From assembly GCA_041744375.1 (NCBI GenBank), contig JBGTLA010000109.1, forward strand, positions 4,553 through 68,552: 64,000 nt of DNA, given 5' to 3'. Position 1 is the stretch's first letter. Each line of letters starts with the position of its first letter. Position numbers and translations under genes: made by a program. Source of the DNA: Acidimicrobiia bacterium. GTDB taxonomy: Bacteria > Actinomycetota > Acidimicrobiia > Spongiisociales > ZC4RG35. The notes under the pieces were generated by a model. The model saw only the letters and a program-made list of their open reading frames with translations. It was not told where the DNA came from and made no database searches. Positions 17,956-38,240 of this stretch are shown here, one piece after another.

Positions 17956-19395
17956 TCAGGGATAGCGCACCGGGGTGGTGGTGCGGGGGAGGCGGGACAC
18001 ATCAACGGGGCACACTCCGGGAGCGTCGACCTCGATGACGGTTCTGGCGACGTCACCGAAGGCGGATCGCCAGGCCACCGCTCCCTTGGCAGAGATGACC
18101 GACGCCCGGGCCGGGTCGATACCCAGGTGGGTCACCTGTTCGACATGGAAGGGCGGAGTAGGGACGGTGGTGACGACCAGGTCGATTCCTCCGACTCCCA
18201 ACCAGGCGGTCAGCCCCATCGAGTACTGCTGACCGGTGCCCCACGATCCCCCCGAGGTGTAGCGGCCGTCGGACAACCCCTCGACGGTGGCGACGATCTC
18301 CACCGGGTCGCCGTGGAGCTCGTCGGTCTTGCCGCCCACCTCGGCCCTCAGGGTGGCACCGATGCCCGCTTCGTGGGCTGCGGCGGCCACGTCACCGTCG
18401 GCGATGACGACGAGCGCTCCCACCGCTTCCTGTTCCAGGAGTTGGGCCAAGAGGGCGGTGCCGTCGCCGGCGGAACCTCCCCCGATGTTGTCGGCGACGT
18501 CGGCCAGGACCACCGGCCGGTCGGAGGCGACGAGGGCCTCGGTCACGGCGTCGGCGGGCCCGGGTCGTTCCAGGGTGAAGTCGTCGACGACCTTGTCGAC
18601 GGCGGCAAGGACCTCGCCGATGAGGGAGTCGGCGGCCGCCCCGTTGTCGGCGCCGGTCGTGGCCAAGACACTGATGCCGGCCCGCTCGGTGTCGGAGTAG
18701 GCGAAACCCCCGGTGATGCATACCCGCTCCACACCCAACCGGCGTGCGGCGGCCTGCGCCGAATGGAACAGCGACGCCATGGGGTCGGCAGCGGTCCACT
18801 GCGACAAGGGCGTGACTAGGAGTGGGTGTTTACCGATGCGGGTCCTGGGCCGCTCTCCTGCCAGCAGGCGCATCATCCACCCGGTCGCCTCGGCGCCTCG
18901 TTCGTACATGTCGACATGGGGGTACGTGTCGTATCCGATGACTACATCGGCGTCGTCGATGAAGTTCACCGACGGATTGGCGTGGAAGTCGACCACCGCC
19001 ACCACCGGGGCGTCGGCGGTAACCGAACGGATGGCGGCGATGGCGTCACCTTCCATGTCGGGGCGGCCGTCGGCCACCATGGCCCCATGCAGGTTGGCGA
19101 GGACCCCGTCGAGGGGCCCGGCCGCCGCCAGCCCGTCGGTGAGCATGCCCAGGAGTCGCTCGGCGGCGTCGGCGGTGACAGTCCCGGCGGGCCACGCTCC
19201 TGCTGAGAAGATCGGTACCAGTTCGAAATCGGAGCCGTCGAGAAAACCTCCGACGACGGTGCGGGTTCCGGCGTGACGCTCGAAGATGGCGGGGCCCCAG
19301 TCGAGCTCGAAGTCTGCGAACGAGCCAAGGGTGGTGGGGCGCGACGAGTAGGTGTTGGTCTCGTGCCAGAGGCCCACCACTCCGACCCGGGTCAC
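17956..19395 (-). CDS. M81-family metallopeptidase (MlrC / microcystinase-C-like)
   Basis: The real start is a GTG overlapping the upstream TGA (GTGA). N-terminal VTRVGVVGLWHETNTYS matches the MlrC/DUF1485 start. The track ORF has a spurious 198-aa Arg-rich extension. Confidence 0.75.
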   Translation of the reverse strand: MTRVGVVGLWHETNTYSSRPTTLGSFADFELDWGPAIFERHAGTRTVVGGFLDGSDFELVPIFSAGAWPAGTVTADAAERLLGMLTDGLAAAGPLDGVLANLHGAMVADGRPDMEGDAIAAIRSVTADAPVVAVVDFHANPSVNFIDDADVVIGYDTYPHVDMYERGAEATGWMMRLLAGERPRTRIGKHPLLVTPLSQWTAADPMASLFHSAQAAARRLGVERVCITGGFAYSDTERAGISVLATTGADNGAAADSLIGEVLAAVDKVVDDFTLERPGPADAVTEALVASDRPVVLADVADNIGGGSAGDGTALLAQLLEQEAVGALVVIADGDVAAAAHEAGIGATLRAEVGGKTDELHGDPVEIVATVEGLSDGRYTSGGSWGTGQQYSMGLTAWLGVGGIDLVVTTVPTPPFHVEQVTHLGIDPARASVISAKGAVAWRSAFGDVARTVIEVDAPGVCPVDVSRLPRTTTPVRYP

Positions 19396-20663
19396 GACAC
19401 CGTCGCTTTCATGGCGGCATCGACGCGCTGGAGGGTCTCGTCGATGTCGGCGTCGTCGTGGGCGGCCGACAGGTACCAGATTCCCCGGCCCGCCACCCAC
19501 ACCCCGTGGGCGATGAGAGTGTGGGAGAAGGCGGCGTAGGCGTCGGCGTCGAGACGCCCGAGGGAGCGGTAATCGGTGACGGGCCCCGCCCCGAAACCGG
19601 CATGGAAAGCCATCGGCACACCCTGGATGTTGAGATCGAGGCCGTGGCCGATCGCCAGCTCCGCCAGGCCGTCCTTGAGCCGTGTGCCCAGTTGAGCGAT
19701 TCGCTCGTACGGCGGGTCGGCGGCCAGTCGGTGCAGGGTGGCGGCGGTGGCGGCACAGGCCATGACCGAGGCGTTGAAGGTGCCGGAATGGTTGACCTCG
19801 CCGGTGCCGAACCGTTCCATCATGGCGCCGGTGCCCGCTAGAGCCGACACCGGCCACCCCCCCGCCATCGCTTTGCCATAGGTGGCCATGTCGGGGGTCA
19901 CTCCGTACCGCTGGGCAGCGCCGCCGGCCGCGACCCGAAAGCCCGAGATGACCTCGTCGAAGATGAGGACCACCCCGGCGGCGTCGCACACCGCTCGCAC
20001 CCCTTCCAGATAGTTGGGGAGAGGCTCGATCGACCCGGCATTGAGCATCGTCGGTTCCATCAGCACGGCCGCGATGTCATCGTGGCGGGCGAGCACCGCC
20101 TCGACGGCGGCTAGGTCGTTCCAAGGCAACATGATGGAATCCTCCAGGTGGGAAGCGAGTTGCCCGGCCGAGGCGGGAACGGCGCGGCCGTTTTCGACGG
20201 CTGCGAGGGTGTTGTCGAGCCAGCCGTGGTAGTGGCCTTCGAAACGCACGAAGCGTGGGCGGCCGGTGACGGCGCGGGCCATGCGCAGCGCCGCCTGGAT
20301 CGATTCGGTACCCGAGACACCGAACCGCACCTTGTCGGGCCAGCCGAGGGCGTCGATCATGAGCTCGGCGGCTTCCAGCTCGAGGGGGTGCTGAGCACCG
20401 TAGACCATCCCCCGGCGGGTGGCGGCGTCGACGGCGTCGAGGATGTCGGCGGGGGCGTGACCCAAGAAGTTGGGCCCCTGGCCCAATAGATAGTCGACGT
20501 ACTCGTTGCCGTCTATATCGACGAGCCGCGACCCCGACCCGTGGTCGAAGAACACGGCCGGGGCGAGCAGGCGGACGTTGGAGTTGACTCCGCCCGGCAG
20601 CACCCGTTGGGCCCGGGACCGCAGCTCGGCGGATCGTTCGGTTTGATAGGGACCGGAGGTCAT
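19392..20663 (-). CDS. Class III (GSA-like) PLP-dependent aminotransferase
   Basis: 423 aa. GGVNSNVR...FDHGSGSRLVDIDGNEYVDY; the PLP-Lys region ATYGKAMAGGWP; strong family resemblance. Confidence 0.85.
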   Translation of the reverse strand: MTSGPYQTERSAELRSRAQRVLPGGVNSNVRLLAPAVFFDHGSGSRLVDIDGNEYVDYLLGQGPNFLGHAPADILDAVDAATRRGMVYGAQHPLELEAAELMIDALGWPDKVRFGVSGTESIQAALRMARAVTGRPRFVRFEGHYHGWLDNTLAAVENGRAVPASAGQLASHLEDSIMLPWNDLAAVEAVLARHDDIAAVLMEPTMLNAGSIEPLPNYLEGVRAVCDAAGVVLIFDEVISGFRVAAGGAAQRYGVTPDMATYGKAMAGGWPVSALAGTGAMMERFGTGEVNHSGTFNASVMACAATAATLHRLAADPPYERIAQLGTRLKDGLAELAIGHGLDLNIQGVPMAFHAGFGAGPVTDYRSLGRLDADAYAAFSHTLIAHGVWVAGRGIWYLSAAHDDADIDETLQRVDAAMKATVS

Positions 20664-20694
20664 CGCTTCCTTTCTCGTCGGGTGAACCTTGTGG

Positions 20695-22140
20695 TCATGT
20701 CACATCCAGGTTGATGGTCTTGAGCTGGGTCATCTCGAGCAGCGTCCACCGACCCCCCAACCGCCCCACTCCACTCTGTTTTCCGCTGAACCCGCCGAAC
20801 GGAGTGTGAGGCTGCCAGTAGGCAGTGGTCTCGTTTACGTTGACGACCCCGGTGTGGAGCGCCTCGGCCACCCGCATGGCTCGGCCGATATCGCGAGTGA
20901 AGACGCTGCCGACCAGTCCGGTCTCGGAGCGGTTGGCGTCAGCGATCGCTTCCTCCTCGTCGGCAAAGGTCATGACCGGCGCCACCGGCCCGAACGTCTC
21001 CTCGGTCTCGATGAGCATGCCGGGGCGGATCCCGTCGACGACGGTGGGTTGGTAGTAGAGGGAGGTGGGGTGGCCGTGGGCGCGGGCCCCGCCGGCGACC
21101 ACGACAGCGCCCTTGTCGGTCGCGTCGGCGAGATGGGCGTCGATGCGAGCGGCACCAGCCTCGGAGGTCAACGGTCCGAGGGTGGTCCCTGCGTCGAAGG
21201 GCGAGCCCAAGCGGAGGCGGTGCGCCGTTTCCACGAGACCGGAGACAACCCGGTCGTGGACCGCTTCGTGGACGAGGATCCTCTCGACCGAGTCACAGAT
21301 CTGGCCGGCGTTGGCGAAACAGCCCACCTCCAGCTTGGCGACGACGGCGTCGATGTCGGCGTCGTCGAAGACGATCACCGGGCAGTTGCCGCCCAATTCC
21401 AACAGCATGGGCTTCCCCGCCGCTGCCTCTGCCACCAGACGCCCGGTGCGGCTGCTGCCGGTGAAACCAACGGCGACGATCCCGGGGTGGGCGGCTATTC
21501 CACCGCCCATCCCCGCCGGGTCACCGTGGAGGAGGTTGAGGGTGCCGGCCGGGACGCCGGCGTCGACGAAGCAGCGGGCCAGGTGCCAGGCCGATATGGG
21601 AGTGAGCTCGGACGGCTTCCATACCATGGCGTTGCCTGTGGCGAGCCCGGCACTGAGGTACTCCGACGGGATGGTGACGGGAAAGTTCCAGGGAGTCAGC
21701 AGCCCGTACACCCCGCGCGGCTGGCGAATGGTCAGGACCCGTTTGGCCGGATCGGAGCTGGGGATGACCGACGTCTCCAGACGTTTGATGCCTTCAGCGG
21801 CATCTCGGAACATCTCCACTGCCGCCGCCACTTCGGGGAGCGCCTCGGCGTGCAGCGGTTTTCCCTGTTCGGTGGAGACGTCCCAGGCGATCTCTGAGGC
21901 GCGTTCTTCCAGGAGGTCGGCGACTCGGTGGGTGAGCTCTGCTCGCTCGAAGGCGGTCATTGCCGCCAGGGCCCGGTGCGCCGACCAGGCGGCTGCGGTG
22001 GCCTGGTCGAGTTGGGCGGCGTCGCCCTGGTGGACGTCGGCCACCACCTCGCCCGAGGCGGGGCTCGTCACAGGGAGCGGGCCGGCGGCGGCGCCGGGAC
22101 GCCATACGTTGTCGATGAGCAGCTCGAGGGTACGGGTCAT
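20695..22140 (-). CDS. NAD(P)-dependent aldehyde dehydrogenase
   Basis: 481 aa. ALDH glutamate/cysteine blocks (LELGGNCPVIVFDDAD; FANAGQICDSVERILV). Confidence 0.9.
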   Translation of the reverse strand: MTRTLELLIDNVWRPGAAAGPLPVTSPASGEVVADVHQGDAAQLDQATAAAWSAHRALAAMTAFERAELTHRVADLLEERASEIAWDVSTEQGKPLHAEALPEVAAAVEMFRDAAEGIKRLETSVIPSSDPAKRVLTIRQPRGVYGLLTPWNFPVTIPSEYLSAGLATGNAMVWKPSELTPISAWHLARCFVDAGVPAGTLNLLHGDPAGMGGGIAAHPGIVAVGFTGSSRTGRLVAEAAAGKPMLLELGGNCPVIVFDDADIDAVVAKLEVGCFANAGQICDSVERILVHEAVHDRVVSGLVETAHRLRLGSPFDAGTTLGPLTSEAGAARIDAHLADATDKGAVVVAGGARAHGHPTSLYYQPTVVDGIRPGMLIETEETFGPVAPVMTFADEEEAIADANRSETGLVGSVFTRDIGRAMRVAEALHTGVVNVNETTAYWQPHTPFGGFSGKQSGVGRLGGRWTLLEMTQLKTINLDVT

Positions 22141-22904
22141 GTCATTTCTCCCGGGAGGGACCGCTCGGCGAGGCGGCGAGCAAACCCGAGAGCCCGTTCC
22201 ACCACCAACTCGACGATTGTGCGCCCGGCCTCTTCACTGGCGAGGCGAGCATCGCCCAGGGCGCCGTCGTCGCTCCACTCTTCGAACCAGACCGCCTGGT
22301 CGACAACGGGCCGGGGCGGGTCTATCAGTTCCTCGACCTGGTAACGGCCGCCGGGCTCCGCGATCTTCTCGGGACGGACCCGGTCGGGCACGAGCGCCAT
22401 CGCCACCGATGTCTCCACCTCGCAGGCGTGGCCGTAGGCGGGACTGCGGGCGATGTCGGCGGCGGCATCGGCGGCGATGATCGCCCACATCACCGAAGCC
22501 ACCAGCATCCCGTGGTCACGGCGAGCGGCACGCCCGGCCAGGCTGAGAGCGTCGATATTGCCTCCGTGGCCGTTGACGAAGAGCACCCGGCCGATGCCGT
22601 GGTGCGCCAGGCTCTCGAGGATGTCCCCCACAACGGCCAGGTAGGTGGCAGGGCGGAGGGTGAGGGTGCCGGCGAAGGAGAGATGATGCTCGGAGAGGCC
22701 GTAGCCGAGGAGCGGACACAACACGGCCTCGTCCCCTAACTCGGAGGCGAGACGGCGGGCGATGGCCTCGGCCACGGCCGCATCGGTGTCCAAGGTGAGG
22801 TGGGGACCGTGCTGTTCGCAGCTCCCCACCGGGACGATGGCGATGCGGGCACCGGCCAGCGCCTGGGCGGCATCGGTTGTCGTCATGCGGGCCAATTCGT
22901 TCAT
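22137..22904 (-). CDS. Creatininase-family amidohydrolase
   Basis: IAIVPVGSCEQHGPHLTLDTD and VNGHGGN motifs. Start taken at the ATG (MNELARM) just downstream of the IclR gene's stop (overlapping by 4 nt); the track ORF is extended by an Arg-rich run. Confidence 0.8.
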   Translation of the reverse strand: MNELARMTTTDAAQALAGARIAIVPVGSCEQHGPHLTLDTDAAVAEAIARRLASELGDEAVLCPLLGYGLSEHHLSFAGTLTLRPATYLAVVGDILESLAHHGIGRVLFVNGHGGNIDALSLAGRAARRDHGMLVASVMWAIIAADAAADIARSPAYGHACEVETSVAMALVPDRVRPEKIAEPGGRYQVEELIDPPRPVVDQAVWFEEWSDDGALGDARLASEEAGRTIVELVVERALGFARRLAERSLPGEMT

Positions 22905-23647
22905 TTGACATCTCCTGCGATTCTGCGGGCGGCCTCGGCCAACACTTCGAAGGCGTCTTTCGCCTCCTGATCCGAGAAGCGAGCGGCGGGAGCGCTGAGG
23001 CTGAGCGCCGCCGGGAAGGCCACCCCGGCGATGGGAACCGCCACGCACCGTCCCTCGGCCTCGTTCTCCCCGTCGTCGATGGCGTAGCCGACTTCGCGGC
23101 TGTGGCGGATGGTTTCGATGAAGCGGTCGGGATCGGTGATGGTGCGGGCGGTGCGGGCGGGCATGCCCTCGGCCTCGAGTATGGCGGCCACCTCCTGGTC
23201 TTCGAGAAGCATGGATATGGCTTTGCCGAGGCCGGTGGAATGGATCGGCTCGTGATCACCCTTGCGGGCCACGAAACGCATGCTGTGGCGGCTCTCGACG
23301 ATCTCGAGGTAGACGACTCGCGAGCCGTCGAGCACACCCAGGTTGACGGTCTCGCCGAAGCGGTCGCGCACCTCCTCGAGGATGGGGCGAGCGCGCAAGG
23401 CGAGAAGACTGAGATGACGCACGTCCGATGACAGGAACGCCGGACCGAGGTGGTACGAGCCGCCGTCGTTGCGCTCCACGTAGCCGCGGGCCTCGAGGGT
23501 GGCGAGGTAGCGGAAAACGGAACTGCGGGGCATGTCGGTGATGGCGGCGAGTTGAGCGAGGGTGGCGCCATCGTTGTTGTTGCGCAACAGGTCTAACAGG
23601 TCGAGAACCCGGGTGACGGAGCGGACGGCGTAGCGAGAGTCGGTCAC
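22901..23647 (-). CDS. IclR-family transcriptional regulator
   Basis: 248 aa. N-terminal wHTH (SVTRVLDLLDLL...ATLAQLAAITDMPRSSVFRYLATLEARGYV) plus a C-terminal IclR effector domain. Confidence 0.85.
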   Translation of the reverse strand: MTDSRYAVRSVTRVLDLLDLLRNNNDGATLAQLAAITDMPRSSVFRYLATLEARGYVERNDGGSYHLGPAFLSSDVRHLSLLALRARPILEEVRDRFGETVNLGVLDGSRVVYLEIVESRHSMRFVARKGDHEPIHSTGLGKAISMLLEDQEVAAILEAEGMPARTARTITDPDRFIETIRHSREVGYAIDDGENEAEGRCVAVPIAGVAFPAALSLSAPAARFSDQEAKDAFEVLAEAARRIAGDVK

Positions 23648-24645
23648 GGCGTCACCAGCTCCCCCGTGTCGGCCGCCTGTTCCATCGCCAGCGCCACCCG
23701 CAGCGCTTCGGTGCCGTCGGCGGCGGTGCAGACCGGGGTGCTATCGCCCCGGACGCAGCGGATGAAGTGGTCGGCTTCGATGCCCATGGCGCCGCCCATG
23801 ATGCCGTGGAGGTCGGGCGAGTACCCGACGTCGTCGTCGGCCGGCCCGTCGGCCAGGACCTTGAGGTACCCGGTGGTGCCCTGGGCGACCGAGAGCATCC
23901 CCGACTGACCGATGACGGTGAACCCCGCCGAGCCGTACCCGGGGGTGCGGGACGGCAGCGACCACCCGATCTGGGCGGTGCCGTGGGCACCGCCTGAGAA
24001 TCGCAGCCCTACCGAGTACAGGTCCTCGACGTCGTGGCCGTGAGACGCCACCACCCCCGAGCTGCGGGCCGCCCACACCTCGGCGACGTCGCCGGCATAC
24101 CAGCGGGCCAGATCGAACTCATGGACGCCGTAGTAGAGGGCGATGGAGGTGCGACCGCCGAGGATGTCCTGGTCAGACACGAGCCCGATCCGTTCGCTAC
24201 GGATGGCTTGCACCGCCCCGATCTCTCCGTTGCCGACAGCCCGATGGATGGCGGCGTAACGGGGCTCGAAACGGAGGATGTGGGCGGCGAGGACCGGCAC
24301 CCCAGCCGCGTCGGCGGCTGCCCGGATCGCCTCGGCGTCGGCGACGGTGTGGGCGATGGGCTTTTCGATCGCCACCGCCTTGCCGGCGGCCACGGCGGCC
24401 AGGGCGACATCGGTGTGGAGGTGCTCGGGGGTGGCCACCACGACCCCGTCCACCCGAGGGTGGGAGGCGGCCTCCAGAGGATCAGTGACAGCGGAGGCGC
24501 CGTAGTGGTCGGCGGCCGTGTCAGCCACGTCGGAACGGATGTCGGACACGATCGCCAGGTCGGCAGCGCCGTTCTCGGCGACGGTCCGGCACCAGCGGCC
24601 GCCCATGAAACCCAGTCCGATGACGGCGATCCGTGGCTTGGTCAA
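23644..24645 (-). CDS. Gfo/Idh/MocA-family NAD(P)-dependent oxidoreductase
   Basis: PRIAVIGLGFMGG Rossmann start and EKP catalytic block (AVAIEKPIA). TTG start preceded by GGAGGA. Confidence 0.8.
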   Translation of the reverse strand: MTKPRIAVIGLGFMGGRWCRTVAENGAADLAIVSDIRSDVADTAADHYGASAVTDPLEAASHPRVDGVVVATPEHLHTDVALAAVAAGKAVAIEKPIAHTVADAEAIRAAADAAGVPVLAAHILRFEPRYAAIHRAVGNGEIGAVQAIRSERIGLVSDQDILGGRTSIALYYGVHEFDLARWYAGDVAEVWAARSSGVVASHGHDVEDLYSVGLRFSGGAHGTAQIGWSLPSRTPGYGSAGFTVIGQSGMLSVAQGTTGYLKVLADGPADDDVGYSPDLHGIMGGAMGIEADHFIRCVRGDSTPVCTAADGTEALRVALAMEQAADTGELVTP

Positions 24646-25643
24646 CGTGGTCCTCCGCTGGTAGCTATGGGCTGTCCGAGGCGTTCGGGCACCTGGGACG
24701 CGAAATGACAGGCTGCCCAACGCCCTGGCTCCCACTCGGCCAAATCGGGCCGATCGGTGGCGCACACAGGCTGGGCCATCGGGCAGCGGGGCGCAAAGGC
24801 GCAGCCACCCACGATATCGCTGTGGTTGGGGGACTCGATGTCGATGCGAACGGTGACCCCCTCGGCGGAGATCTTGGGGACCGCCGACAAGAGTCCCACC
24901 GTGTACGGGTGGAGAGGGCGGATGGCGAGCTCAGGGGCGGCGCCCATCTCGACGATGCGGCCCAGGTACATGACCGCCACCCGGTGGCTCATGTAGCGGA
25001 CCACACCGAGGTCGTGGGAGATGAAGAGGTAAGCGAGGCCCCGTTCCGCCTGCAGGTCCTTCAACAGGTTGAGGATCTGGGCCTGGACGGACACGTCGAG
25101 GGCCGAGACGGCTTCGTCGGCGACGATGAGCGAAGGCTCCACCGCCAGCGCCCGGGCGATGCTGACCCGTTGCCGCTGTCCGCCCGACAACTGATGGGGG
25201 AAGGACCGGGCAAGGTCGACCGACAGGCCGACGGCGGAGAGCAACGATCCCACCCGCTCTCCGATCTCGGAGCGGGGGACGACGTGGTGGATGAGGAGCG
25301 GCTCGGCCAGGATGCGGCCCACCCGCATCCGTGGGGGCAGCGACGAGTAAGGGTCCTGGAAGACGATCTGCGCCCGGCGCCGAAGCAGGGAGGTGTCGTC
25401 GGCGCCCACCACGGCGCCGTCGAACACGACCTCGCCAGAGGTTGGCTCGAGAAGCCGGAGGACGGTGCGACCGAGTGTCGACTTGCCACAGCCGCTCTCG
25501 CCGACGAGACCCAGTGTCTCGCCGGGCGCAATGTCGAAGGAGACGTCTTCGACGGCGCGTATGGTCGAGCCCTGCTTCTTTCCGACGGACCTAACCGTGA
25601 ACTCCTTGGACAGATGGCGGACTTCGAGGAGAGGGGTGGTCAC
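24642..25643 (-). CDS. Peptide/nickel (Dpp/Opp-type) ABC transporter ATP-binding protein
   Basis: Walker A GESGCGKST, signature LSGGQRQR, and a C-terminal oligopeptide-ABC tail with Cys cluster. GTG start overlaps the upstream TGA. Confidence 0.85.
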   Translation of the reverse strand: MTTPLLEVRHLSKEFTVRSVGKKQGSTIRAVEDVSFDIAPGETLGLVGESGCGKSTLGRTVLRLLEPTSGEVVFDGAVVGADDTSLLRRRAQIVFQDPYSSLPPRMRVGRILAEPLLIHHVVPRSEIGERVGSLLSAVGLSVDLARSFPHQLSGGQRQRVSIARALAVEPSLIVADEAVSALDVSVQAQILNLLKDLQAERGLAYLFISHDLGVVRYMSHRVAVMYLGRIVEMGAAPELAIRPLHPYTVGLLSAVPKISAEGVTVRIDIESPNHSDIVGGCAFAPRCPMAQPVCATDRPDLAEWEPGRWAACHFASQVPERLGQPIATSGGPR

Positions 25644-27583
25644 GAGGTCACCGCCTCGACCGGTTGGGGGGCCCACAGGTGACAGGCGGCCAGGTGGCCG
25701 GGGCCTATGTCGAAACGGGGCGGGACCACATCGCGACAGACGTCCATCACTTCGGGGCAGCGGGCGGCGAAGGGACAGCCAACCCGGTCCTGGCGGGGGT
25801 CGGGCAGCTCACCGGGGATGGCCTCGAGGCGCTCTGCGGCGTTCTCGACACGGGGCACCGATTGGAGCAGGGCACGCGTGTACGGGTGGTGAGGGGAGGC
25901 GATGACCCGGCGCACCGGGCCGTACTCGCACACTTCGCCGGCGTACAGGACCAACATGGTGTCGGCGTATTCGGAGACAAGGGCGATGTCGTGGGTGATG
26001 AGGAGGAGGCTGATGTCGTCGCGCTCGGTCAGCTCGACGAGCCGACTGAGGATCTGGGCCTGCGTTGTCGTGTCGAGGGCGGTGGTGGGCTCGTCGGCGA
26101 TGAGGAGGCGGGGCCGGGCAGCGAGGGTCATGGCGATCATGACCCGCTGGTTCATTCCCCCCGAGAGCTGGAACGGATACTGGCGGCTGATGCGCTCGGG
26201 GTCGGCGATCCCCACCATCTGGAGCGCTCGGCGGGCCACATCCGCGACGGTGCCCCGGTCGGCGTCGGTGACGTGACGGATCGCCTCGCGCAGTTGGAAC
26301 CCGATCGTGAGGACGGGGTTGAGGGAGGCGGCGGGGTTTTGGAAGATCATGGCCACCTGCCGTCCCCGCAAGGCGGCCATGCGCCGGTCGCCTATTCGGG
26401 CCAGGTCGTCGCCGTCGAACACGACACTGCCGGCGCTGACCCGGCCGGGCGGGTCGAGGAGCTGGATGACGGCGGCGGCGGTCACCGACTTGCCGGAGCC
26501 GCTCTCGCCCACCACTCCCAGCGTCTCACCACCGGCGAGATCGAAGTCGATACCGCGCACGGCCTTCAGGGTCCCTCCGGGGAGTGGGAACTCGACGTGG
26601 AGCCCGCGCACGGCGAGCAGGCGCTCGCCGTCGGAGTCGACGGCGGGAGCGGGGGTGGTAGGGCGCAGGCGACGGAACCCGCCTCGGACATGACGAGTGT
26701 CGAACACCGACGCCAGGCCATCGCCCAGCAGGTTGATGGACAGGACAGTGATCATGATGGCCAGGCCGGGGAGGATGGGCAGCCACGCCGACACCACCAT
26801 GTTGCGACGGCCGTCGGCGAGAATTCCGCCCCACGTGGCCGCCGGTGGGGGCAACCCCAGGCCCAAAAAGCTGAGAGTCGATTCCATGATGATGAGGAAT
26901 CCCACATCCAACAGAGCGATGACCGGCACCACCTGCCACACGGACGGGAACACGTAGCGGAACAGGCGCCGCCACGGCCCCGCCCCCAGGGCGGTGGCGG
27001 CAGCGACATAGTCCTTCTCCTTCTCGGCCAGGACGCGGCTGCGCACCACCCGGGCATAGATGATCCACCCGGGGATGCCCAACACCACCACCAGCAGCAG
27101 GGCGCCGCGGTTGGCGACTACCCCGAGGATGGCGATGGCCAAGAGGATGAAGGGGAAAGCGAGCTGGACGTCGCCCAGGCGCATGAGGACAGAATCGACC
27201 TTCCCGCCGAAGAAACCTGCCAACAGCCCGGTGGCGAGGCCGAGGGAGGATCCGAGGAGCATGGCCGAGAAGGCGATGAAAAGGGAGTTGCGGGCGCCGA
27301 AGAGGAGGCGGCTGGCCACGTCGCGTCCCAACACATCGGTGCCCAACAGGTGCTCGGTGTTCCCGCCCGCCCAGATCGGCGGGGCGAGGATGTTGGCCAG
27401 GTTCTGGGCGGAGGGGTCGTAGGGGGCGATGACAGGGGCGAAGAGGGCGGCAGTGCCGATCAGGGTGATCCCGAGCGCGCCTATGAGGAGTAGGGGGCTG
27501 CGGAGGATGCGCCGCCCGGCACCACCGACGGCTGAGCGCGCCGATGGGGCGCTTAGTTCGACGGCGCCGAGGGCGTCGCTCAT
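25640..27583 (-). CDS. Fused Dpp/Opp-type ABC permease (DppC-like) and ATP-binding (DppD-like) protein
   Basis: 647 aa. N-terminal 6-TM permease with the EAA-like region. C-terminal ATPase (GESGSGKS; LSGGMNQR; LLIADEPTTALD). Confidence 0.85.
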   Translation of the reverse strand: MSDALGAVELSAPSARSAVGGAGRRILRSPLLLIGALGITLIGTAALFAPVIAPYDPSAQNLANILAPPIWAGGNTEHLLGTDVLGRDVASRLLFGARNSLFIAFSAMLLGSSLGLATGLLAGFFGGKVDSVLMRLGDVQLAFPFILLAIAILGVVANRGALLLVVVLGIPGWIIYARVVRSRVLAEKEKDYVAAATALGAGPWRRLFRYVFPSVWQVVPVIALLDVGFLIIMESTLSFLGLGLPPPAATWGGILADGRRNMVVSAWLPILPGLAIMITVLSINLLGDGLASVFDTRHVRGGFRRLRPTTPAPAVDSDGERLLAVRGLHVEFPLPGGTLKAVRGIDFDLAGGETLGVVGESGSGKSVTAAAVIQLLDPPGRVSAGSVVFDGDDLARIGDRRMAALRGRQVAMIFQNPAASLNPVLTIGFQLREAIRHVTDADRGTVADVARRALQMVGIADPERISRQYPFQLSGGMNQRVMIAMTLAARPRLLIADEPTTALDTTTQAQILSRLVELTERDDISLLLITHDIALVSEYADTMLVLYAGEVCEYGPVRRVIASPHHPYTRALLQSVPRVENAAERLEAIPGELPDPRQDRVGCPFAARCPEVMDVCRDVVPPRFDIGPGHLAACHLWAPQPVEAVTS

Positions 27584-28509
27584 GCCTGGGCGGCTCCGAC
27601 GCGCGGGTCGAGCACGGCGTAGAGCATGTCGACGACGAAATTGAGGACGACGAAAACCACGGCCGCCACCAGGATCCCGCCCTGGATCATGGGGAAGTCG
27701 CGGCTGGCGAGGGAGTCCAAGATGAGCTTGCCGATGCCCGGCCAGTTGAAGATCGCTTCCACCACCACCGCCCCGGCGAGAAGGAAACCGAGCTGAAGGC
27801 CGATGAGGGTGACGAGGGGTAGAGACGCCGCCTTGACGCCGTGGACGGTGAACACCCGCCAGGAAGGGAGGCCGCGAGCGCGGGCGGCCTTGATGTAGTC
27901 CTCGCGGAGGGTCTCAATGAACGATTGTCGGGCGGTGCGAATGAGGACGGGGCTGAGGGTGACGACGAGGGTGGTGACGGGGAGCACGAAGCTGCGCCAC
28001 CCACCCATGTCGATGGCGGGGAACCAACGCAGGTTGAGGGAGAACACGAGCACCAGCAGAACTGCCAGCCAGAAGGCGGGGGTGGCCTGGGCGATGGCCA
28101 CCCACCCCAAGATGAGACGGTCCAATAGGCCGGAGGGCCGCCAGGCTGCGACCGCTCCCAGCGCGACGGCCAACGTGGCCGACACGACCACGGTGATGCC
28201 GGCGAGGGCGAGGGTGTTGGGCAGGGCACCGAAGACAGCCGAGGCCACGGGTTGAGCTCCCCTGAATGAGGTGCCCAGGTCACCCTGCGCGGCGTTCCAC
28301 AAGTACTCGAAGTACTGGACGGCGACCGGCTTGTCCGTCCCGATCCGCTCGCGCGTCTGGGCGATGATGTCCTCGGGCGTGCCCGGCGGGTTGACGAGAC
28401 GGGCCGGGTCGCCGGTGGCGATACGCAATACGAAGAAGGCGATGGTGACCACTGCCAGCACCACCAGCACCATTTGGCCGAGGCGGATGAGGAGGACCCT
28501 CCCCCTCAT
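27580..28509 (-). CDS. Dpp/Opp-type ABC transporter permease (DppB-like)
   Basis: 309 aa. Typical N-terminal anchor and a binding-protein-dependent transport motif region. Confidence 0.85.
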   Translation of the reverse strand: MRGRVLLIRLGQMVLVVLAVVTIAFFVLRIATGDPARLVNPPGTPEDIIAQTRERIGTDKPVAVQYFEYLWNAAQGDLGTSFRGAQPVASAVFGALPNTLALAGITVVVSATLAVALGAVAAWRPSGLLDRLILGWVAIAQATPAFWLAVLLVLVFSLNLRWFPAIDMGGWRSFVLPVTTLVVTLSPVLIRTARQSFIETLREDYIKAARARGLPSWRVFTVHGVKAASLPLVTLIGLQLGFLLAGAVVVEAIFNWPGIGKLILDSLASRDFPMIQGGILVAAVVFVVLNFVVDMLYAVLDPRVGAAQA

Positions 28510-28551
28510 CCGCCGTTGCCTTGGTTCGAGCAGAAGCTCGAAGTCATCCGA

Positions 28552-30201
28552 TCAGCCGCCGAGGCTGGCCGGGTAGAAGTCGGTGCGGAACACATGTGGC
28601 TGGACCAAGATCCCCTGCAACTCGCTGGCATGTGCCAGCGTGAAGTCGGAGTTGTACAGCGGCACATGCCAGGCCTGCTCCCACATATGAGCCTGCAGCT
28701 CAGCGTAGATCTGTTCCCGCTCGGCCGGATCCAGGGTGGTGCGGCCCTGGGCGATGAGATCGTCGAGCTCCTCGTCGCCGAAGTACCAGGCGAACGCCGA
28801 GGAGTACACGGCCGCCGCCTGGTTGGGGTCTCCGGCACTGGCCCAGCTCAGGTGGTACATCGCTCCGGTGCCCGTCTCGCTGAAGGCGTCATCGATAAGG
28901 CCGGCCACGTCGCTTGTGACGACCGTCGCATTCAGTCCTACCGCCTGCATCTGGGCGACCATTGCCTCCACCACCGGGACGGCCCGGGGCAGGAACCCCT
29001 CGGCCACCCAGATCTCGAAGGGAGGTCCGCCGTCGGGCACTCCGGCAGCCTCGAGGGCGGCGGCGGCTCCCGCCGGGTCGGCCGTGAACGGCGGCTGCTG
29101 TTCCTGGTAGTAGAGGGTGTTGGTCGGCAAGAAGCTTCCAGCCGGGGCGCTGGCACCCATCACCAGGTTCTCGACCAGGGGGCCGCGGTCGAACGAGAGG
29201 TTGACGGCCCGACGGAAGTCGGCGTTCTCGTCCCAGATCGGCAGCCGACCCGGGCGCACATACAGGTTGACCGACTCGATGCCCGTGACGCCGATCAGCT
29301 CGATGCCCGCTTCGGCTTCGAGGATATCGAGGTGCTCGGGCGGGACTCGGTCGATGGCGTGGGCCTGGCCGTCCAACAGAGCGTCGAGGCGGGTCTGGGG
29401 ATCCTGGATGAACTCCCACACCAGCGTGTCGATGGTGGCCGGCTCCTGCCAGTAGTCGGAGTTGGGTTCCATCGTCTTGACGTTGACGGTGTCGGTCACG
29501 AGCCGGAACGGGCCCGTCCCGTTCGGGGAGCCGGCGAGCTGCTCCTCGTCGCCTTCCAGCCACTGGGCCGAGACGATGGGGGTCCACCACAACTCGACCA
29601 GGATGGGGGCGAAGGGCTCCTCGGTGGCAAGGCGCACCGTGTAGTCGTCGATGATCTCGACTTCGGCCGGCGCCCAGGTCAGGGCGTAAGCCGAGTCGCC
29701 GCTGAAGCCCGATGCCAGTTCTACCGAAGCTTTGACGTCGGCGGCGGTCAGGGGCTGACCGTCGTGGAACACGACGTCGTCGCGCAGCGTGAACTCCCAG
29801 GTGGTGTCGTCGATCTGCTCCCACGAAGTGGCCAGGCTCGGCTCGGGCTGGCTCAGGTCACCGGTGGGGAAGTCGACGAGGTAGTCATAGATCTGGCGCT
29901 CGAGCCGTTTCTGGCTGAGAGCCGTGGATGAATAGGGCGTCCAGTCCGCCCAGAAGTTCTCCGCCATCAGGAACCGGACGACCCCGTCGTCGTCGCCGTC
30001 CGGGTCGGGGGCGGCGGTGGTATCGGGGGTGTCGGGGGAGGGCGCCTCGGTAGTCGTAGGCGCCTCGGGGTCGGGCGAGGCGGCAGTGGTAGTTGTTTCG
30101 ACGCCGGTGTCGGCGGTGCAAGCGGCGATCACCAGACAGAGGATGGCGAAAAGACCGATCCGTCGTTGGAGTGACCCAGACCTTGACAGAATGCGCATCA
30201 T
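28552..30201 (-). CDS. ABC transporter substrate-binding lipoprotein, family 5 (peptide/nickel/opine type)
   Basis: 549 aa. Lipobox LVIAACTAD, a Thr/Pro/Asp-rich linker and an SBP_bac_5-like body. Confidence 0.85.
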   Translation of the reverse strand: MMRILSRSGSLQRRIGLFAILCLVIAACTADTGVETTTTAASPDPEAPTTTEAPSPDTPDTTAAPDPDGDDDGVVRFLMAENFWADWTPYSSTALSQKRLERQIYDYLVDFPTGDLSQPEPSLATSWEQIDDTTWEFTLRDDVVFHDGQPLTAADVKASVELASGFSGDSAYALTWAPAEVEIIDDYTVRLATEEPFAPILVELWWTPIVSAQWLEGDEEQLAGSPNGTGPFRLVTDTVNVKTMEPNSDYWQEPATIDTLVWEFIQDPQTRLDALLDGQAHAIDRVPPEHLDILEAEAGIELIGVTGIESVNLYVRPGRLPIWDENADFRRAVNLSFDRGPLVENLVMGASAPAGSFLPTNTLYYQEQQPPFTADPAGAAAALEAAGVPDGGPPFEIWVAEGFLPRAVPVVEAMVAQMQAVGLNATVVTSDVAGLIDDAFSETGTGAMYHLSWASAGDPNQAAAVYSSAFAWYFGDEELDDLIAQGRTTLDPAEREQIYAELQAHMWEQAWHVPLYNSDFTLAHASELQGILVQPHVFRTDFYPASLGG

Positions 30202-30214
30202 TTGCTCCTATTCC

Positions 30215-30238
30215 AGTGAGTGAAACTGCTATCTCACT
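30215..30238. promoter_or_regulatory. Inverted repeat AGTGAG-N12-CTCACT in a low-GC leader 14 nt upstream of the transporter operon start; candidate operator (possibly for the operon-internal IclR)
   Basis: Read from the sequence. Sits in an AT-richer 5' leader of the SBP gene. Confidence 0.3.
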
Positions 30239-30437
30239 TGCTGAATGGTTCATACCACCCTCTGTTCCAGCTGTCAACGGATCCCCACTCCGGCGGTAAT
30301 GCGATTCGCTCCCAGGAAAGCGGCGGTGAAGAAGCTAGGACAGTGTTGAGCAAGTCGTTTCCGCCATCGCCGACAGTCCTCCTGCCAGGCACTGTGATGG
30401 GCCAGCGGTCGAACTTCCGCTCTTTTTCAACAACGTC

Positions 30438-31397
30438 CTAGTGGCGCGGGCGGATGCCGGAGTCGCTCCCACCGAGGATGGTCGCCACCTCGGCCGCCGA
30501 GAGGCCTTCGAGAGCTGCCTCCACAGAATCGACACCCATCGGGAAGGGCCAGTCGCTGCCGAACTCGACCGATTCGAGGCCGAAGGTGTCGACTACGTGG
30601 CGCAAGTACGAACGGTCGTGCACGACAGTGTCCACCGCGAAGCGACGCACCGCCTCACGGGGGGCGAGGGTGAGTGCCCCGAGGCCGAGCCGTCCCGTCG
30701 TCACCCCCCGCTCCCAGCGGCCCGCCAGGGCTGCAGTCGCTCCCCCGCCGTGGGCCAGCAGGATGCGCAGGTCGCGATGGCGACCCATCACGTCACCGAA
30801 CACCAGGTGGGCGGCCGCCACGGCCGTCTCATAGGGGTTGCCCACCAGGTTGCCGAGGTAGAAGTGGGCGAGTCGATCGTCGCGGCACTCACCAGGATGG
30901 ATGAACCCCGGCAGCGCCCGATCCTCCAGCACCTCCCACAGGGGGGCGTAGACCTCGTCCGAATAGACGAGGTCCCCGAGCTCGGTCCCGAGAGTTACCC
31001 CCGCCCATGAGTCGTCGAGGCCTGCCACCACCTCGGCAGCGAGGCGGGGCCGCTCGACGGGCACGTAGGCCATGGGCCGCAGACGCCCACCCGCACACGC
31101 CTCCACCAGGCCCTCGTTGACGAGAGTCACCCACCTCTCGGTATCACGGTCGCCAAGGTCGGGCCGGTAGAGGGGCGGGGGGGGCGAGACGAGCGCGCCC
31201 ACTAGCCCGTTGTCGTCGAGCCAACCGCTCAATACCTCAGAACGGGTGATGCGGTGCATGGCAAACCGAAGCATCGGTGTGACCAGGACGTCGCCGTCGA
31301 CGGCCATCCCATATCTTTGTCGCTTCGCCTCGTCGACGACCGAAGCTGGGACCAGGTGGGTGTGAACGTCCCATCCTCGGCGTTTCTCAGCGAGCAT
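30438..31397 (-). CDS. Amidohydrolase-2 family enzyme (ACMSD / hydroxy-aromatic acid decarboxylase type)
   Basis: HTHL metal-binding start, internal H/D ligand positions and a C-terminal FGSDWPF block typical of amidohydrolase_2. Start at the ATG after an aggaag sequence. Confidence 0.75.
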   Translation of the reverse strand: MLAEKRRGWDVHTHLVPASVVDEAKRQRYGMAVDGDVLVTPMLRFAMHRITRSEVLSGWLDDNGLVGALVSPPPPLYRPDLGDRDTERWVTLVNEGLVEACAGGRLRPMAYVPVERPRLAAEVVAGLDDSWAGVTLGTELGDLVYSDEVYAPLWEVLEDRALPGFIHPGECRDDRLAHFYLGNLVGNPYETAVAAAHLVFGDVMGRHRDLRILLAHGGGATAALAGRWERGVTTGRLGLGALTLAPREAVRRFAVDTVVHDRSYLRHVVDTFGLESVEFGSDWPFPMGVDSVEAALEGLSAAEVATILGGSDSGIRPRH

Positions 31398-31821
31398 CTT
31401 CCTCGTTCGTGTACCAGGACGGGACCTCGGGATAGTGGTGTCCGTCATACACCTCCAGGAGCACCGACGTCTCGTCGGCGACGGTGGGACCGTGAGTGCT
31501 TCCTTTGGGGTTCCAGTAGAAGTCACCCGGCTGCAAAGTGGTACCTGTGGGGATGTATCGGTAACGACCACTCAGGCAGTACATGAACTGGTTGGATGAG
31601 TGGACGTGTGCCGAAGGGATCCCCGATCCCTGTGCGAAGCGGACGAGGGCGATCGAGGCCCCCGAGTCCTCGTCGCGCCACAGCATCTTGTGCGAGAGGC
31701 CATCGAGGGACTTATCGATCCATTCCATGTCCCCGGTGTGCAACAGCACCTCCCGGAAGGAACCCATCGCTTCGACCGGAACCTCTCCGGCCGGTCCACC
31801 GAACGGGCTGACGTCACTCAC
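31387..31821 (-). CDS. Cupin-domain protein
   Basis: Single cupin barrel with His-rich motif block (HVHSSNQFMYCLSG...). GTG start chosen 7 nt before the upstream stop. Confidence 0.6.
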   Translation of the reverse strand: MSDVSPFGGPAGEVPVEAMGSFREVLLHTGDMEWIDKSLDGLSHKMLWRDEDSGASIALVRFAQGSGIPSAHVHSSNQFMYCLSGRYRYIPTGTTLQPGDFYWNPKGSTHGPTVADETSVLLEVYDGHHYPEVPSWYTNEEDAR

Positions 31822-32170
31822 CGGTCCACTCCTCTGTCTTGATCTCGATGAGGCGGCACCGATACGGAACGTCGGATACGTTGACCAGCCGGTGGACGGG
31901 CCCCTGTTCGCTGCGGACCACCACGTTCCCGGCCGGCTCGAACGTGTCGCGGGTATCACCGAAGATCGTTTGCACCTGGTTGGCGTCTCCGCCGAGAGAG
32001 ATGACGACGTAGGGGTGACGGTGGAAGTGGAACGGCTGAGAATCGCTCGGCTCGAGGGCGATTCCCCACACTCTTACCGAGTCGTCCTCATACAACAGGT
32101 CCTGGCCGACGTCGTCCAGATCTATGCCCTGGCGACTGGCTTCCACCAGCCCGAAACGGTCTTCGTTCAT
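31814..32170 (-). CDS. Cupin-domain protein
   Basis: 118 aa. FHFHRHPYVVISLGG motif 1 and a second His block. Confidence 0.65.
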   Translation of the reverse strand: MNEDRFGLVEASRQGIDLDDVGQDLLYEDDSVRVWGIALEPSDSQPFHFHRHPYVVISLGGDANQVQTIFGDTRDTFEPAGNVVVRSEQGPVHRLVNVSDVPYRCRLIEIKTEEWTGE

Positions 32171-33747: not shown

Positions 33748-34469
33748 GTCTCCACCTCGAGTGCTCGCTCGCGACTCAGGGAAGAGGCGGCCATCGTGGC
33801 GGCGTCCGACAGAAGGAAGAGGATGGGTTGGACCACGTCTTCGGGCCTGCCCACCCCCACCGTGGCAGCCCAGTGCCGGCGCTCGGACTCGTCGTTGGCG
33901 GCCCGATACTGTCGGGTGTCGACCACGCCGGGGGAAACGAGGTGGACCCGCACGCCCGACCTGGATACCTCGGCGGCGAGGGTACGGGCAAGGCCGTGGG
34001 CGGCGGCCTTGGTGGTGGAGTAGGCGGCCGCCCCCGGCCACCCGGACAGGGCGATGCCGGAGGTGAACATCACCACCGCTCCGCGCCCGGCGTCCACCAT
34101 GGCCGGGACAAAAGCCTGACACGTCCACAGGATCCCCTCGAGGTTGACAGCCTGGACCCTCCGCCATTCTTCGGCATCGACTTCGAGCACACGCCCGCGC
34201 GGCTGGATGACGGCGCCGCACACCAATCCCGTCACTAGACCCAACCCCGCTGCGACGGCGCCGGCGGCTTCGACCACGGCGGTGCGGTCGGAGACGTCCA
34301 CCCGGTGGTAGTCGATTTGTTCGTGGAGATCGTGGGGGCGGGTGTCAACGTCGAGAACGGCCACGGAAGCCCCCACGGCAAGTGCTGCTTCGGCCACCGC
34401 CCGGGAGATGCCGTTGGCGCCTCCCGTCACGACCACCACGTCACCGGCCCCGTCGAAGGTGGCTTTCAT
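33744..34469 (-). CDS. SDR-family oxidoreductase
   Basis: TGGANGIS Rossmann motif; YSTTKAA catalytic YxxxK. Confidence 0.85.
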   Translation of the reverse strand: MKATFDGAGDVVVVTGGANGISRAVAEAALAVGASVAVLDVDTRPHDLHEQIDYHRVDVSDRTAVVEAAGAVAAGLGLVTGLVCGAVIQPRGRVLEVDAEEWRRVQAVNLEGILWTCQAFVPAMVDAGRGAVVMFTSGIALSGWPGAAAYSTTKAAAHGLARTLAAEVSRSGVRVHLVSPGVVDTRQYRAANDESERRHWAATVGVGRPEDVVQPILFLLSDAATMAASSLSRERALEVET

Positions 34470-38239: not shown

Positions 38240-38240
38240 G

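Follow-up and report, generated by a model that had tools for sequence, protein, structure and literature searches.

A conserved ten-gene cluster of Acidimicrobiia with an embedded IclR-family regulator, predicted to import and degrade a small nitrogen-containing compound

In the degradation of ectoine by Halomonas elongata (doeABCD), a ring-opening hydrolase and an N-deacylating metallohydrolase are followed by a class-III aminotransferase and an aldehyde dehydrogenase (ALDH), which turn the amine into a carboxylate. Cleavage by the hydrolase MlrC releases the beta-amino acid Adda, a type of product that an aminotransferase of the clade treated below could take. ATP-binding cassette (ABC) systems that depend on a substrate-binding protein (SBP) are importers. 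Acidimicrobiia, most of which are uncultured, are actinobacteria that abound in soils, sediments and waters, and their diet is poorly known. Here, we describe a stretch of 64,000 nucleotides (nt) from an uncultured Acidimicrobiia bacterium (assembly GCA_041744375.1, contig JBGTLA010000109.1, positions 4,553 to 68,552 of the forward strand), which as a whole is called the window, and in which ten minus-strand genes combine an ABC importer, two predicted metal hydrolases, an oxidoreductase of the Gfo/Idh/MocA family (Gfo), an ALDH, an aminotransferase and a regulator of the IclR family. The ten genes form one conserved unit, of which the order, strand and flanks change between genomes while the genes stay together, and they probably constitute, on a balance that leans only modestly this way, one substrate-inducible catabolic operon under IclR control that imports and degrades a small nitrogen-containing compound. 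Systems of this type, with an ABC importer, catabolic enzymes and an IclR repressor, are thoroughly familiar; the enzyme set found here is uncharacterised, and no published description of the gene combination or of the cluster has been found in the full-text library that was searched.

All coordinates refer to the window. Genes and junctions have been taken from a listing of open reading frames (ORFs) and a junction script, and families have been called where a Pfam model scored above its gathering score. The ten ORFs are all open and run from 30201 to 17956, from the SBP to the M81 gene, with the ends that a preliminary description of this DNA, made from the letters alone, had given them:

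28552 to 30201, minus strand: SBP of family 5 (Dpp/Opp/Nik class), lipoprotein, 549 amino acids (aa); Pfam SBP_bac_5, 216 bits
27580 to 28509, minus strand: ABC permease B (DppB/NikB-like), 309 aa; Pfam BPD_transp_1 and BPD_transp_1_N
25640 to 27583, minus strand: fused permease C (DppC-like) and ATPase D (DppD-like), 647 aa; OppC_N, BPD_transp_1, ABC_tran and oligo_HPY
24642 to 25643, minus strand: ATPase F (DppF-like), 333 aa, GTG start, 4-nt overlap with the preceding stop; Pfam ABC_tran and oligo_HPY
23644 to 24645, minus strand: Gfo/Idh/MocA NAD(P)-dependent oxidoreductase, 333 aa, TTG start; Pfam GFO_IDH_MocA N and C domains
22901 to 23647, minus strand: IclR-family regulator, 248 aa, 4-nt overlaps on both sides; HTH_IclR and IclR_C
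22137 to 22904, minus strand: creatininase-fold metal hydrolase, 255 aa; Pfam Creatininase, 231 bits
20695 to 22140, minus strand: NAD(P)+ aldehyde dehydrogenase, 481 aa; Pfam Aldedh, 483 bits
19392 to 20663, minus strand: class-III aminotransferase of the GSA-aminomutase-like clade, 423 aa; Pfam Aminotran_3
17956 to 19395, minus strand: M81 (MlrC-like) zinc hydrolase, 479 aa, GTG start; DUF1485/M81 252 bits and MlrC_C 168 bits

Seven of the nine junctions are 4-nt overlaps of the translational-coupling type (ATGA, GTGA or TTGA), and the remaining two have been computed as gaps of 42 nt between the SBP and permease B and of 31 nt between the ALDH and the aminotransferase; on recomputation, the junctions reported earlier have proved exact. 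The overlaps require the internal starts GTG 25643, TTG 24645, ATG 22904 and GTG 19395 rather than the longest ORFs, and these four starts coincide with the beginnings of the homologue alignments. Each family named in the preliminary description has been confirmed by Pfam well above the gathering score, and the two permeases and two ATPases of the preliminary description are present as domains, which are encoded by three genes since permease C and ATPase D are fused. The G+C content of the window is about 0.68 throughout, a compositional break being absent; the leader of the operon (30202-30437) stands at 0.55 versus 0.685 in the operon itself, in line with the low-GC leader that had been pointed out before.

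The conservation of the unit has been followed through 160 loci around creatininase-family homologues in genomes and metagenomes, with more loci added by exact-protein look-ups, onto which the ten window proteins have been mapped; these loci carry L-numbers, and homologue identities are given relative to the window proteins. The closest creatininase-family homologues (59-88% identity) form at least 120 clusters and come from metagenomes, the named sources being Ilumatobacteraceae, Acidimicrobiia, Acidimicrobiales and Actinomycetota metagenome-assembled genomes. The following layouts have been observed, AT standing for the aminotransferase and Creat for the creatininase-family gene:

Ten genes colinear, IclR embedded: L003 (69-91% identity), L085, L087, L172
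Partial contigs consistent with the colinear layout: L006, L007, L088, L164/L165, L170, L173, L083, L005
[M81-AT-IclR] divergent from [SBP-B-CD-F-Gfo-Creat-ALDH]: L008, L162, L171
[Gfo-F-CD-B-SBP] divergent from [IclR-Creat-ALDH-AT-M81]: L166 and Conexibacter arvalis DSM 23288 (L009, without M81)
ABC-Gfo-ALDH-Creat with AT divergent: Beutenbergiaceae contigs L010 and L091

Scattered orthologues, which would have spoken against an operon, have not been encountered: the genes stay clustered in all related contigs of sufficient length for a judgement, with three rearranged layouts. The genes that flank the operon are unrelated to it and differ from locus to locus, so that the association is a functional one and goes beyond inherited synteny. 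The regulator gene lies between Gfo and the creatininase-family gene in the window and in L003, L006, L007, L085, L087, L088, L164 and L170-L172, so that its mid-operon position, emphasised in the preliminary description as an alternative to a divergent one, holds here and in the commonest layout, while divergent layouts exist elsewhere. Two sub-modules are discernible, ABC-Gfo-Creat-ALDH and AT-M81, and wherever AT and M81 genes are both present they are adjacent. The M81 protein shares 52-69% identity with that of the window in the colinear loci; the figure is about 38% for the first of the divergent layouts, 33% for L088 and 40% for L093. The creatininase-family enzyme, the ALDH and the AT of these loci mostly retain 57-79% identity. 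By these identities, the M81 partner has been swapped between subfamilies among related clusters. At least three to four M81 subfamilies, 31-43% mutually identical, lie beside the aminotransferase gene or divergently upstream (L172 6-1370, L007 4-1293, L008 17-973, L162 1-966, L088 5034-6620), and L172 contains two M81 genes. A collection of plasmids has yielded only homologues below 43% identity in unrelated contexts (for example in Tsukamurella and Thermomicrobium) and is uninformative. Near the creatininase-family genes of a clade with about 40% identity to the window protein, a RidA/YjgF gene has repeatedly been seen, in most cases directly upstream (L014, L016, L020, L021, L026, L096, L098, L103, L109, L111, L113); the pair often lies within a Dpp-class ABC operon, and several Firmicutes have the creatininase-family gene placed between the SBP and permease genes.

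The transport genes comprise the full set of a PepT-family (Dpp/Opp/Nik) importer, i.e., a family-5 SBP, two BPD_transp_1 permeases and two oligo_HPY ATPases, and none of the proteins reaches a substrate-specific equivalog in NCBIfam. As an ABC system with an SBP is an importer, the cluster is expected to serve catabolism or salvage and not biosynthesis. The SBP carries an N-terminal lipobox (...LVIAAC, i.e., IAAC) followed by a Thr/Pro-rich linker, and its homologues in L003 and L008 are 84-89% identical. Its gene begins with tandem ATGs (30196-30201, starting at 30201 and 30198) at 3 nt and 6 nt from the AGGAG, respectively, the spacing of 30198 being the more usual one. The closest NCBIfam equivalog of the SBP, GsiB, is not reached (126 bits, cut-off 594), the best matches in the PDB are YliB/GsiB (129 bits) and AccA (99 bits), and among solved structures the protein is about equally remote from GsiB/YliB, an unnamed SBP, AccA, NikA, DppA and HbpA. 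A substrate prediction from SBP homologues, as proposed in the preliminary description, has been carried out, and with matches this remote and nearly equidistant no ligand is predictable. Permease B matches Opp2B best among the NCBIfam models (307 bits, cut-off 350). The fusion of permease C to ATPase D, encoded by one gene of 646-668 aa, has been found in L003, L008, L009, L162, L164, L166 and L170-L173, and is kept in every long related locus, in Acidimicrobiia, Conexibacter and Beutenbergiaceae alike.

The two hydrolases retain intact catalytic metal ligands. MlrC, the only characterised M81 enzyme, binds zinc through E39, D167, H169 and H191, and cleaves an amide bond of linearised microcystin at the zinc centre (PMC9982164). 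All four ligands, as well as H133, N41 and W59, align with identical residues in the window protein, while the proposed general base E70 falls in an alignment gap; together with both Pfam domains, the ligands place the protein in peptidase family M81. In the creatininase-fold enzyme, the residues E, H, D, H and E that bind the metal are preserved in the alignment. Compared with 1j2t and 1q3k, it retains E, H, D, H120 and H178, the HYE motif has become HGG, with Y121 and E122 replaced by G and G, and the region of W174 (GW(D)IEH) is gapped or deleted. In the Pseudomonas putida creatininase we take E34, H36, D45, H120 and E122 to be the metal ligands, with further roles of Y121, W174 and H178, and this active-site set is not matched by the window protein, given HGG for HYE and the missing W174 segment.

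Judged from model scores and aligned residues, none of the enzymes is a creatininase, MftE, IolN, MlrC, HemL, IolG or succinate-semialdehyde dehydrogenase (SSADH). For the creatininase-fold enzyme, creatinine amidohydrolase (EC 3.5.2.10; TIGR04448, 98.2 bits, cut-off 235), the mycofactocin peptidase MftE (TIGR03964, 137.6 bits, cut-off 172) and the 3-dehydro-scyllo-inosose hydrolase IolN (NF041098, 62 bits, cut-off 245, with residues 6-183 only matched) have each been rejected; MftE, a peptidase, is the closest-scoring characterised relative, and no radical-SAM or other mft genes occur in the operon or among its examined flanking genes. The Gfo protein stays below the inositol 2-dehydrogenase IolG (TIGR04380, 140.8 bits, cut-off 355), and its sole PDB match at E ≤ 1e-20 is the myo-inositol dehydrogenase 3euw (78 bits). 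For the ALDH, the SSADH subfamily scores best (TIGR01780, 372 bits, cut-off 646), with many ALDH models lying within about 10% of one another. The aminotransferase falls below HemL (TIGR00713, 341 bits, cut-off 527; subfamily NF000818, 367 bits, cut-off 398) and GntE (331 bits, cut-off 525); GSA aminomutase is its best PDB match (264 bits), followed at lower scores by D-phenylglycine aminotransferase and beta-transaminases, which this clade also contains along with aldehyde/amine transaminases. A housekeeping HemL identity has been rejected on both the model score and the conserved catabolic neighbourhood. Finally, the M81 protein scores 152.8 bits against microcystinase MlrC (NF041767, cut-off 999).

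The regulator is a member of the IclR family (HTH_IclR 64 bits, IclR_C 133 bits, both above gathering scores), and no equivalog among BhcR, PcaR, KdgR, IclR and AllR has been attained, the best being BhcR with 169 bits (cut-off 350). Upstream of the SBP gene, an alignment of 12 leaders from 12 loci has revealed the following elements:

30272 to 30277, minus strand: candidate -35 element TTGACA, invariant in 12 of 12 aligned leaders
30249 to 30257, minus strand: candidate extended -10 element TGgTATGAA; TG(g/c)TAnnAn and the 17-nt spacing from the -35 element are conserved in the aligned leaders
30210 to 30238, minus strand: candidate IclR operator of three half-sites, at the same position, 10-12 nt after the -10 element, in 12 loci
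30238 to 30232, 30225 to 30219 and 30216 to 30210, minus strand: its left arm AGTGAGA, right arm TTTCACT and third half-site CTGGAAT
30205 to 30209, minus strand: Shine-Dalgarno sequence AGGAG, immediately after the third half-site
30215 to 30238, minus strand: the palindrome AGTGAG-N12-CTCACT, its left arm common to the conserved repeat

The conserved repeat reads AGTGAGA-N6-TTTCACT in the window, with an arm spacer of 5-7 nt across loci. Its arms pair in 92.9% of the cells of the alignment versus 36-46% in slid controls, and three of the seven arm positions vary on both arms (AGTGAGA/TTTCACy, AATGAAA/TTTCATT, AGCGAGA/TCTCGCT). The generalised pattern RTGARA-N4-7-TTTCAY has one occurrence in the 64-kb window, a count which is partly circular as the pattern was derived from that site, and it is found again, independently, at the corresponding site of L003, L006, L085 and L087. 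Comparable boxes lie ahead of iclR where the layout is divergent: L166 has GCTGAAA-N7-TTTCAGC, and the Conexibacter locus has AGTGATT...GTTTCAC...ATGAAA, where two TTTCAC-N3-(G/A)TGAAA elements are seen. The palindrome AGTGAG-N12-CTCACT, which the preliminary description had put forward as a candidate operator, is present, and an operator-like element does lie in the leader; its right arm CTCACT, however, is absent from L003, the closest colinear homologue, and is not conserved in other loci. By shuffling, a perfect 6+6 inverted repeat with a spacer of up to 14 nt is expected about 0.8 times (0.78) per 236-nt leader of the same composition (P ~0.45), so that significance of this palindrome by itself has been rejected. 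The functional signal lies instead in the conservation of the overlapping, slightly different repeat. Half-sites of the type TGAAA/TTTCA resemble IclR-family operators, for example the KdgR box and the sites of PcaU/PobR, which consist of a palindrome plus a third repeat; repressors of the IclR family typically have half-sites of such sequence and bind over the transcription start, and a site at +1 to +35 fits repression. We infer that the IclR protein would bind the repeat at 30238-30210.

From these elements, a plausible course of events can be drawn, in which the order of reactions and the substrate class are deduced from the enzyme families. The lipoprotein SBP and the Dpp/Opp/Nik-class importer (B, fused C-D, F) would bring in a small organic nitrogen compound with at least one amide (or ring) bond. 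Inside the cell, the creatininase-fold and M81 metal hydrolases would cut amide or ring bonds, and the GSA-aminomutase-like aminotransferase would remove the freed primary amine and leave a carbonyl. The invariable adjacency of AT and M81 suggests that the M81 product is the substrate of the aminotransferase. The Gfo/Idh/MocA enzyme would oxidise a hydroxyl, and the ALDH would turn the resulting aldehyde into a carboxylate for central metabolism. The IclR protein would repress at the three-half-site operator just downstream of the promoter until the substrate or an intermediate releases it; as its gene lies inside the operon, it would regulate itself.

Several observations weigh against this reading. 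None of the ten proteins attains a curated NCBIfam equivalog cut-off in the profile comparison, so that every pathway step is assigned at the family level only. The gene content varies (Gfo is missing from L173, M81 from L170 and L009, and both AT and M81 from L164), and an extra gene for a hydrolase of the fumarylacetoacetate-hydrolase (FAH) family lies by the cluster in L003, L007 and L085; the window set may not be a complete route. The complete route announced in the preliminary description has thus not been borne out, with no characterised equivalog matched and with relatives that add FAH or drop Gfo, M81 or AT. In the leader, the -10 element lacks the usual final T, and a consensus scanner has found no sigma-70 promoter passing its rule; the leader promoter is missing from its list because the -10 element ends in A and not in T, and the promoter is proposed from its cross-locus conservation. 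The recognition helix of the regulator tracks the box (SSVF with AGTGAGA, SSAF with AATGAAA), a correlation that follows, and is confounded by, phylogeny and has not been used as evidence. The leader repeat would moreover be transcribed and could act as an RNA hairpin, and distant homologues of the Gfo, creatininase-family and ALDH genes occur in sugar-type operons; both points are taken up below. The FAH-family genes, found at ~15035 in L003 (directly after M81), at 5286-6173 in L007 and at ~1108 in L085, are 56-59% identical between loci, and none is present in the 64-kb window; they could encode a further step of the pathway. Locus L173 (8340-10004) is otherwise colinear and has no Gfo between ATPase F and IclR, its ATPase F being shortened (271 aa); the absence of Gfo may be a real loss or an assembly defect.

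The substrate is the part of the proposal on which a different reading fares best. A peptide-like or cyclic amide is plausible, as the preliminary description had it for a peptide-like amide; such an assignment is not secure in view of the distant Gfo-creatininase-ALDH triads in sugar-type operons. Alternatively, and with a probability that we rate as clearly lower but appreciable, the substrate is derived from a sugar: an amino sugar, an amino-sugar acid, an aminocyclitol, or a sugar-amine or sugar-amide conjugate. Gfo would then oxidise such a compound at a ring hydroxyl or at its anomeric carbon, the creatininase-fold enzyme would act as a lactone/ring hydrolase (IolN-like) or an N-deacylase, the aminotransferase would convert the amino into a keto group, and the ALDH would oxidise a sugar aldehyde. 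The best family matches of Gfo, inositol 2-dehydrogenase and UDP-GlcNAc 3-dehydrogenase, agree with this reading, as does the inclusion of the ring-opening hydrolase IolN in the creatininase family. Gfo-Creat-ALDH triads of 31-55% identity accompany an orthologous CUT1 sugar-type SBP_bac_1 in L013, L015, L041, L092, L093 and L112, among them a Chloroflexota locus (L041 529-9844) with the order IclR-PfkB kinase-KDPG aldolase-CUT1 SBP-two permeases-Gfo-Creat-ALDH, and L093, in which ALDH-Creat-AT-M81 follow a CUT1-type SBP; these triads and the Chloroflexota locus count against the mechanism proposed above. Further hints are FAH-family and RraA-like genes beside some clusters, as they typically occur in non-phosphorylative sugar-acid routes, a GH46 chitosanase that also carries a peptidoglycan-binding domain and follows the cluster in L166 (15010-15930, same strand, 72 nt downstream of M81, in this locus only), the resemblance of the operator half-sites to the KdgR box, and the fact that family-5 SBPs bind sugar derivatives too, with AccA among the PDB matches of the window SBP. 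In a Verrucosispora locus (L026), the creatininase-family gene has been found with RraA-like, PALP, RidA and IclR genes. The sugar-type contexts, however, come from homologues of only 31-55% identity that may use another substrate, and no kinase, aldolase, dehydratase or glycosidase is encoded in the window operon. For M81, peptide-bond hydrolysis is the only activity that has been characterised, and the model of the peptidase MftE (138 bits) fits the creatininase-fold enzyme better than that of IolN (62 bits). More specific candidates, i.e., creatinine, pantothenate, N-acyl-homoserine lactones, 5-aminolevulinate, diketopiperazines and lactams, as well as mycothiol fragments, muropeptides and products of chitosan or oxidised chitin, have not been adopted, as no evidence discriminates between them.

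A single polycistronic transcript of the ten genes is predicted from indirect support: the overlaps at seven junctions, the short gaps of 42 and 31 nt, the lack of an internal promoter-like site and the restriction of the operator motif to the leader. It is conceivable, if unlikely, that the cluster is co-regulated in two or more units, such as the SBP alone, ABC-Gfo-IclR-Creat-ALDH and AT-M81. The only two real gaps would fit such a division, one after the SBP with a stem-loop in it and one before AT:

28525 to 28542, minus strand: stem-loop TTCGAGC-TTCT-GCTCGAA, perfect 7 bp, in the 42-nt gap between the SBP and permease B

In other genomes, AT-M81(-IclR) forms a separate divergent unit, and ABC-Gfo is set apart from IclR-Creat-ALDH-AT. 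Within the operon of the window, however, the consensus scan has yielded no promoter-like sites, the operator motif has been found by the window scan in the leader only, the gaps are too short for a typical promoter and leader, and the other seven junctions are 4-nt overlaps. A gap of 30-110 nt between SBP and permease can be folded into a stem-loop in most related loci, its sequence being unconserved; in the window, the stem-loop may stabilise the messenger RNA or terminate partly and thereby favour an excess of SBP.

Regarding the leader repeat, a role as an RNA stem-loop of the 5' untranslated region that affects mRNA stability or translation, and not as a DNA operator for IclR, is rather improbable. 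The repeat begins about 10 nt past the -10 element and would hence be transcribed, its hairpin has a folding free energy of -14.3 kcal/mol (z -2.2), and the co-variation of the arms includes G-U-compatible changes that suit an RNA stem as well as a protein-bound palindrome. The fold, however, barely beats shuffled sequences (8 of 200 are at least as stable), no Rfam family matches in the leader, and A-C mismatches are present besides G-U pairs. The third half-site, with its invariant AA, is conserved downstream and has no role in a simple hairpin, and boxes of a similar kind precede iclR in the divergent layouts. These features, like the half-sites and position typical of IclR-family repressors, speak against the RNA reading. 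Elsewhere in the window, three sub-threshold Rfam matches are regarded as noise, including Guanidine-II at E=0.84 on the opposite strand within the SBP gene.

Least of all does an opine substrate survive: that the importer takes an opine, an opine-type metallophore or a metal complex, which the enzymes recycle or degrade, would agree with the preference of the permeases for nickel/Opp2-type models and with weak SBP matches to NikA, CntA, AccA and AgaA, yet it is very improbable, as all such matches lie below the curated cut-offs and are no stronger than that to the glutathione binder GsiB (80-99 bits against AccA, AgaA and CntA), as the regulator is an IclR of catabolic type, and as neither an opine oxidase or dehydrogenase, an AgaFG-type lactamase, an opine-specific SBP, a metallophore synthase nor a metal-responsive regulator is present among the ten proteins and the flanking genes examined. 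The opine-like substrate suggested earlier has accordingly received no specific support.

Around the operon, two genes on the same strand lie upstream (30438-34221), encoding an Amidohydro_2 protein (377 aa) and a flavin-adenine-dinucleotide (FAD) aromatic-ring hydroxylase (684-aa ORF); the Pfam domains of the latter begin at residue 164, and its real start is probably later. Both genes look like part of a separate aromatic-compound cluster. Directly 3' of the Amidohydro_2 stop, a hairpin AGCGG-N8-CCGCT (30421-30404) has been flagged by the scanner as terminator-like on the plus strand, and it may insulate the operon from upstream transcription; the terminator-like matches of the scanner are not above those in shuffled sequences. 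Downstream of the operon, a convergent O-methyltransferase gene and a gene for a luciferase-like monooxygenase have been observed. Other ABC ATPase paralogues occur in the window at 37622-38290 and 54389-55863, with 25-32% identity to the ATPases of the operon.

The cluster is conserved in well over a hundred metagenome protein clusters defined at 90% identity, and it couples two hydrolase families of which each has one or few characterised activities. The chances are roughly even that it encodes an undescribed catabolic pathway for a widespread nitrogen compound, such as a cyclic or N-acylated amide or a sugar-amine conjugate, in which both hydrolases would perform reactions new to their families, the module being found in many uncultured Acidimicrobiia and in a few cultured Actinomycetota such as Conexibacter arvalis. 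Naming the substrate would annotate many genomes at once and give the creatininase and M81 families a new activity. With a candidate promoter and operator defined and a cultured carrier in Conexibacter arvalis, a substrate search is feasible, which makes the cluster a well-delimited target for pathway discovery; in other respects it is a standard repressor-controlled uptake-and-breakdown operon.

Compared with the Dpp/Opp/Gsi/Nik (PepT-family) importers, the transporter shows the same composition of a family-5 SBP, two permeases and two oligo_HPY ATPases, and it differs in missing the equivalogs for known substrates and in the fusion of permease C to ATPase D. The regulator shares with KdgR, IclR, AllR and PcaU/PobR both Pfam domains, the TGAAA/TTTCA half-sites and a palindrome with a third repeat over or just past the promoter, whereas the equivalogs are missed, the arm spacer is 5-7 nt and the gene stands mid-operon in the commonest layout. 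With the creatininase of Pseudomonas putida and with MftE, the creatininase-fold enzyme has in common the fold family and the metal-binding E, H, D, H and E; it is set apart from them by the two missed thresholds, the exchange of Y121/E122 for G/G, the deleted W174 region and the absence of mycofactocin genes from the operon and the examined flanking genes. The last gene of the window operon belongs to the same family (M81) as the mlrC gene of the mlrABCD microcystin cluster, with the same zinc ligands, but the identity to MlrC is about one third over the aligned region (read off the alignment, not computed), the model score is 153 bits (cut-off 999) and E70 is unaligned. As the operon holds only its ten confirmed families, homologues of mlrA, mlrB and mlrD are absent from it, and the related clusters exchange their M81 partner between subfamilies. 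The myo-inositol pathway of Thermotoga maritima (IolG, IolM, IolN, IolO) likewise joins a Gfo dehydrogenase and a creatininase-family hydrolase in an ABC-fed catabolic operon; here, the IolN and IolG scores are 62 bits (cut-off 245) and 141 bits (cut-off 355), the transporter is of the Dpp and not of a sugar class, and the window adds an aminotransferase, an ALDH and the M81 protein. In the ectoine pathway, the hydrolases are the M24-like DoeA and DoeB of the succinylglutamate-desuccinylase family in place of the creatininase-fold and M81 enzymes, Ehu or TRAP transporters replace the Dpp class, MocR or AsnC regulators replace IclR, and the doe genes include no Gfo-type dehydrogenase. What the doeABCD route shares with the window operon is its chemical logic and a similar number of enzymes, an analogy of mechanism and not of membership.

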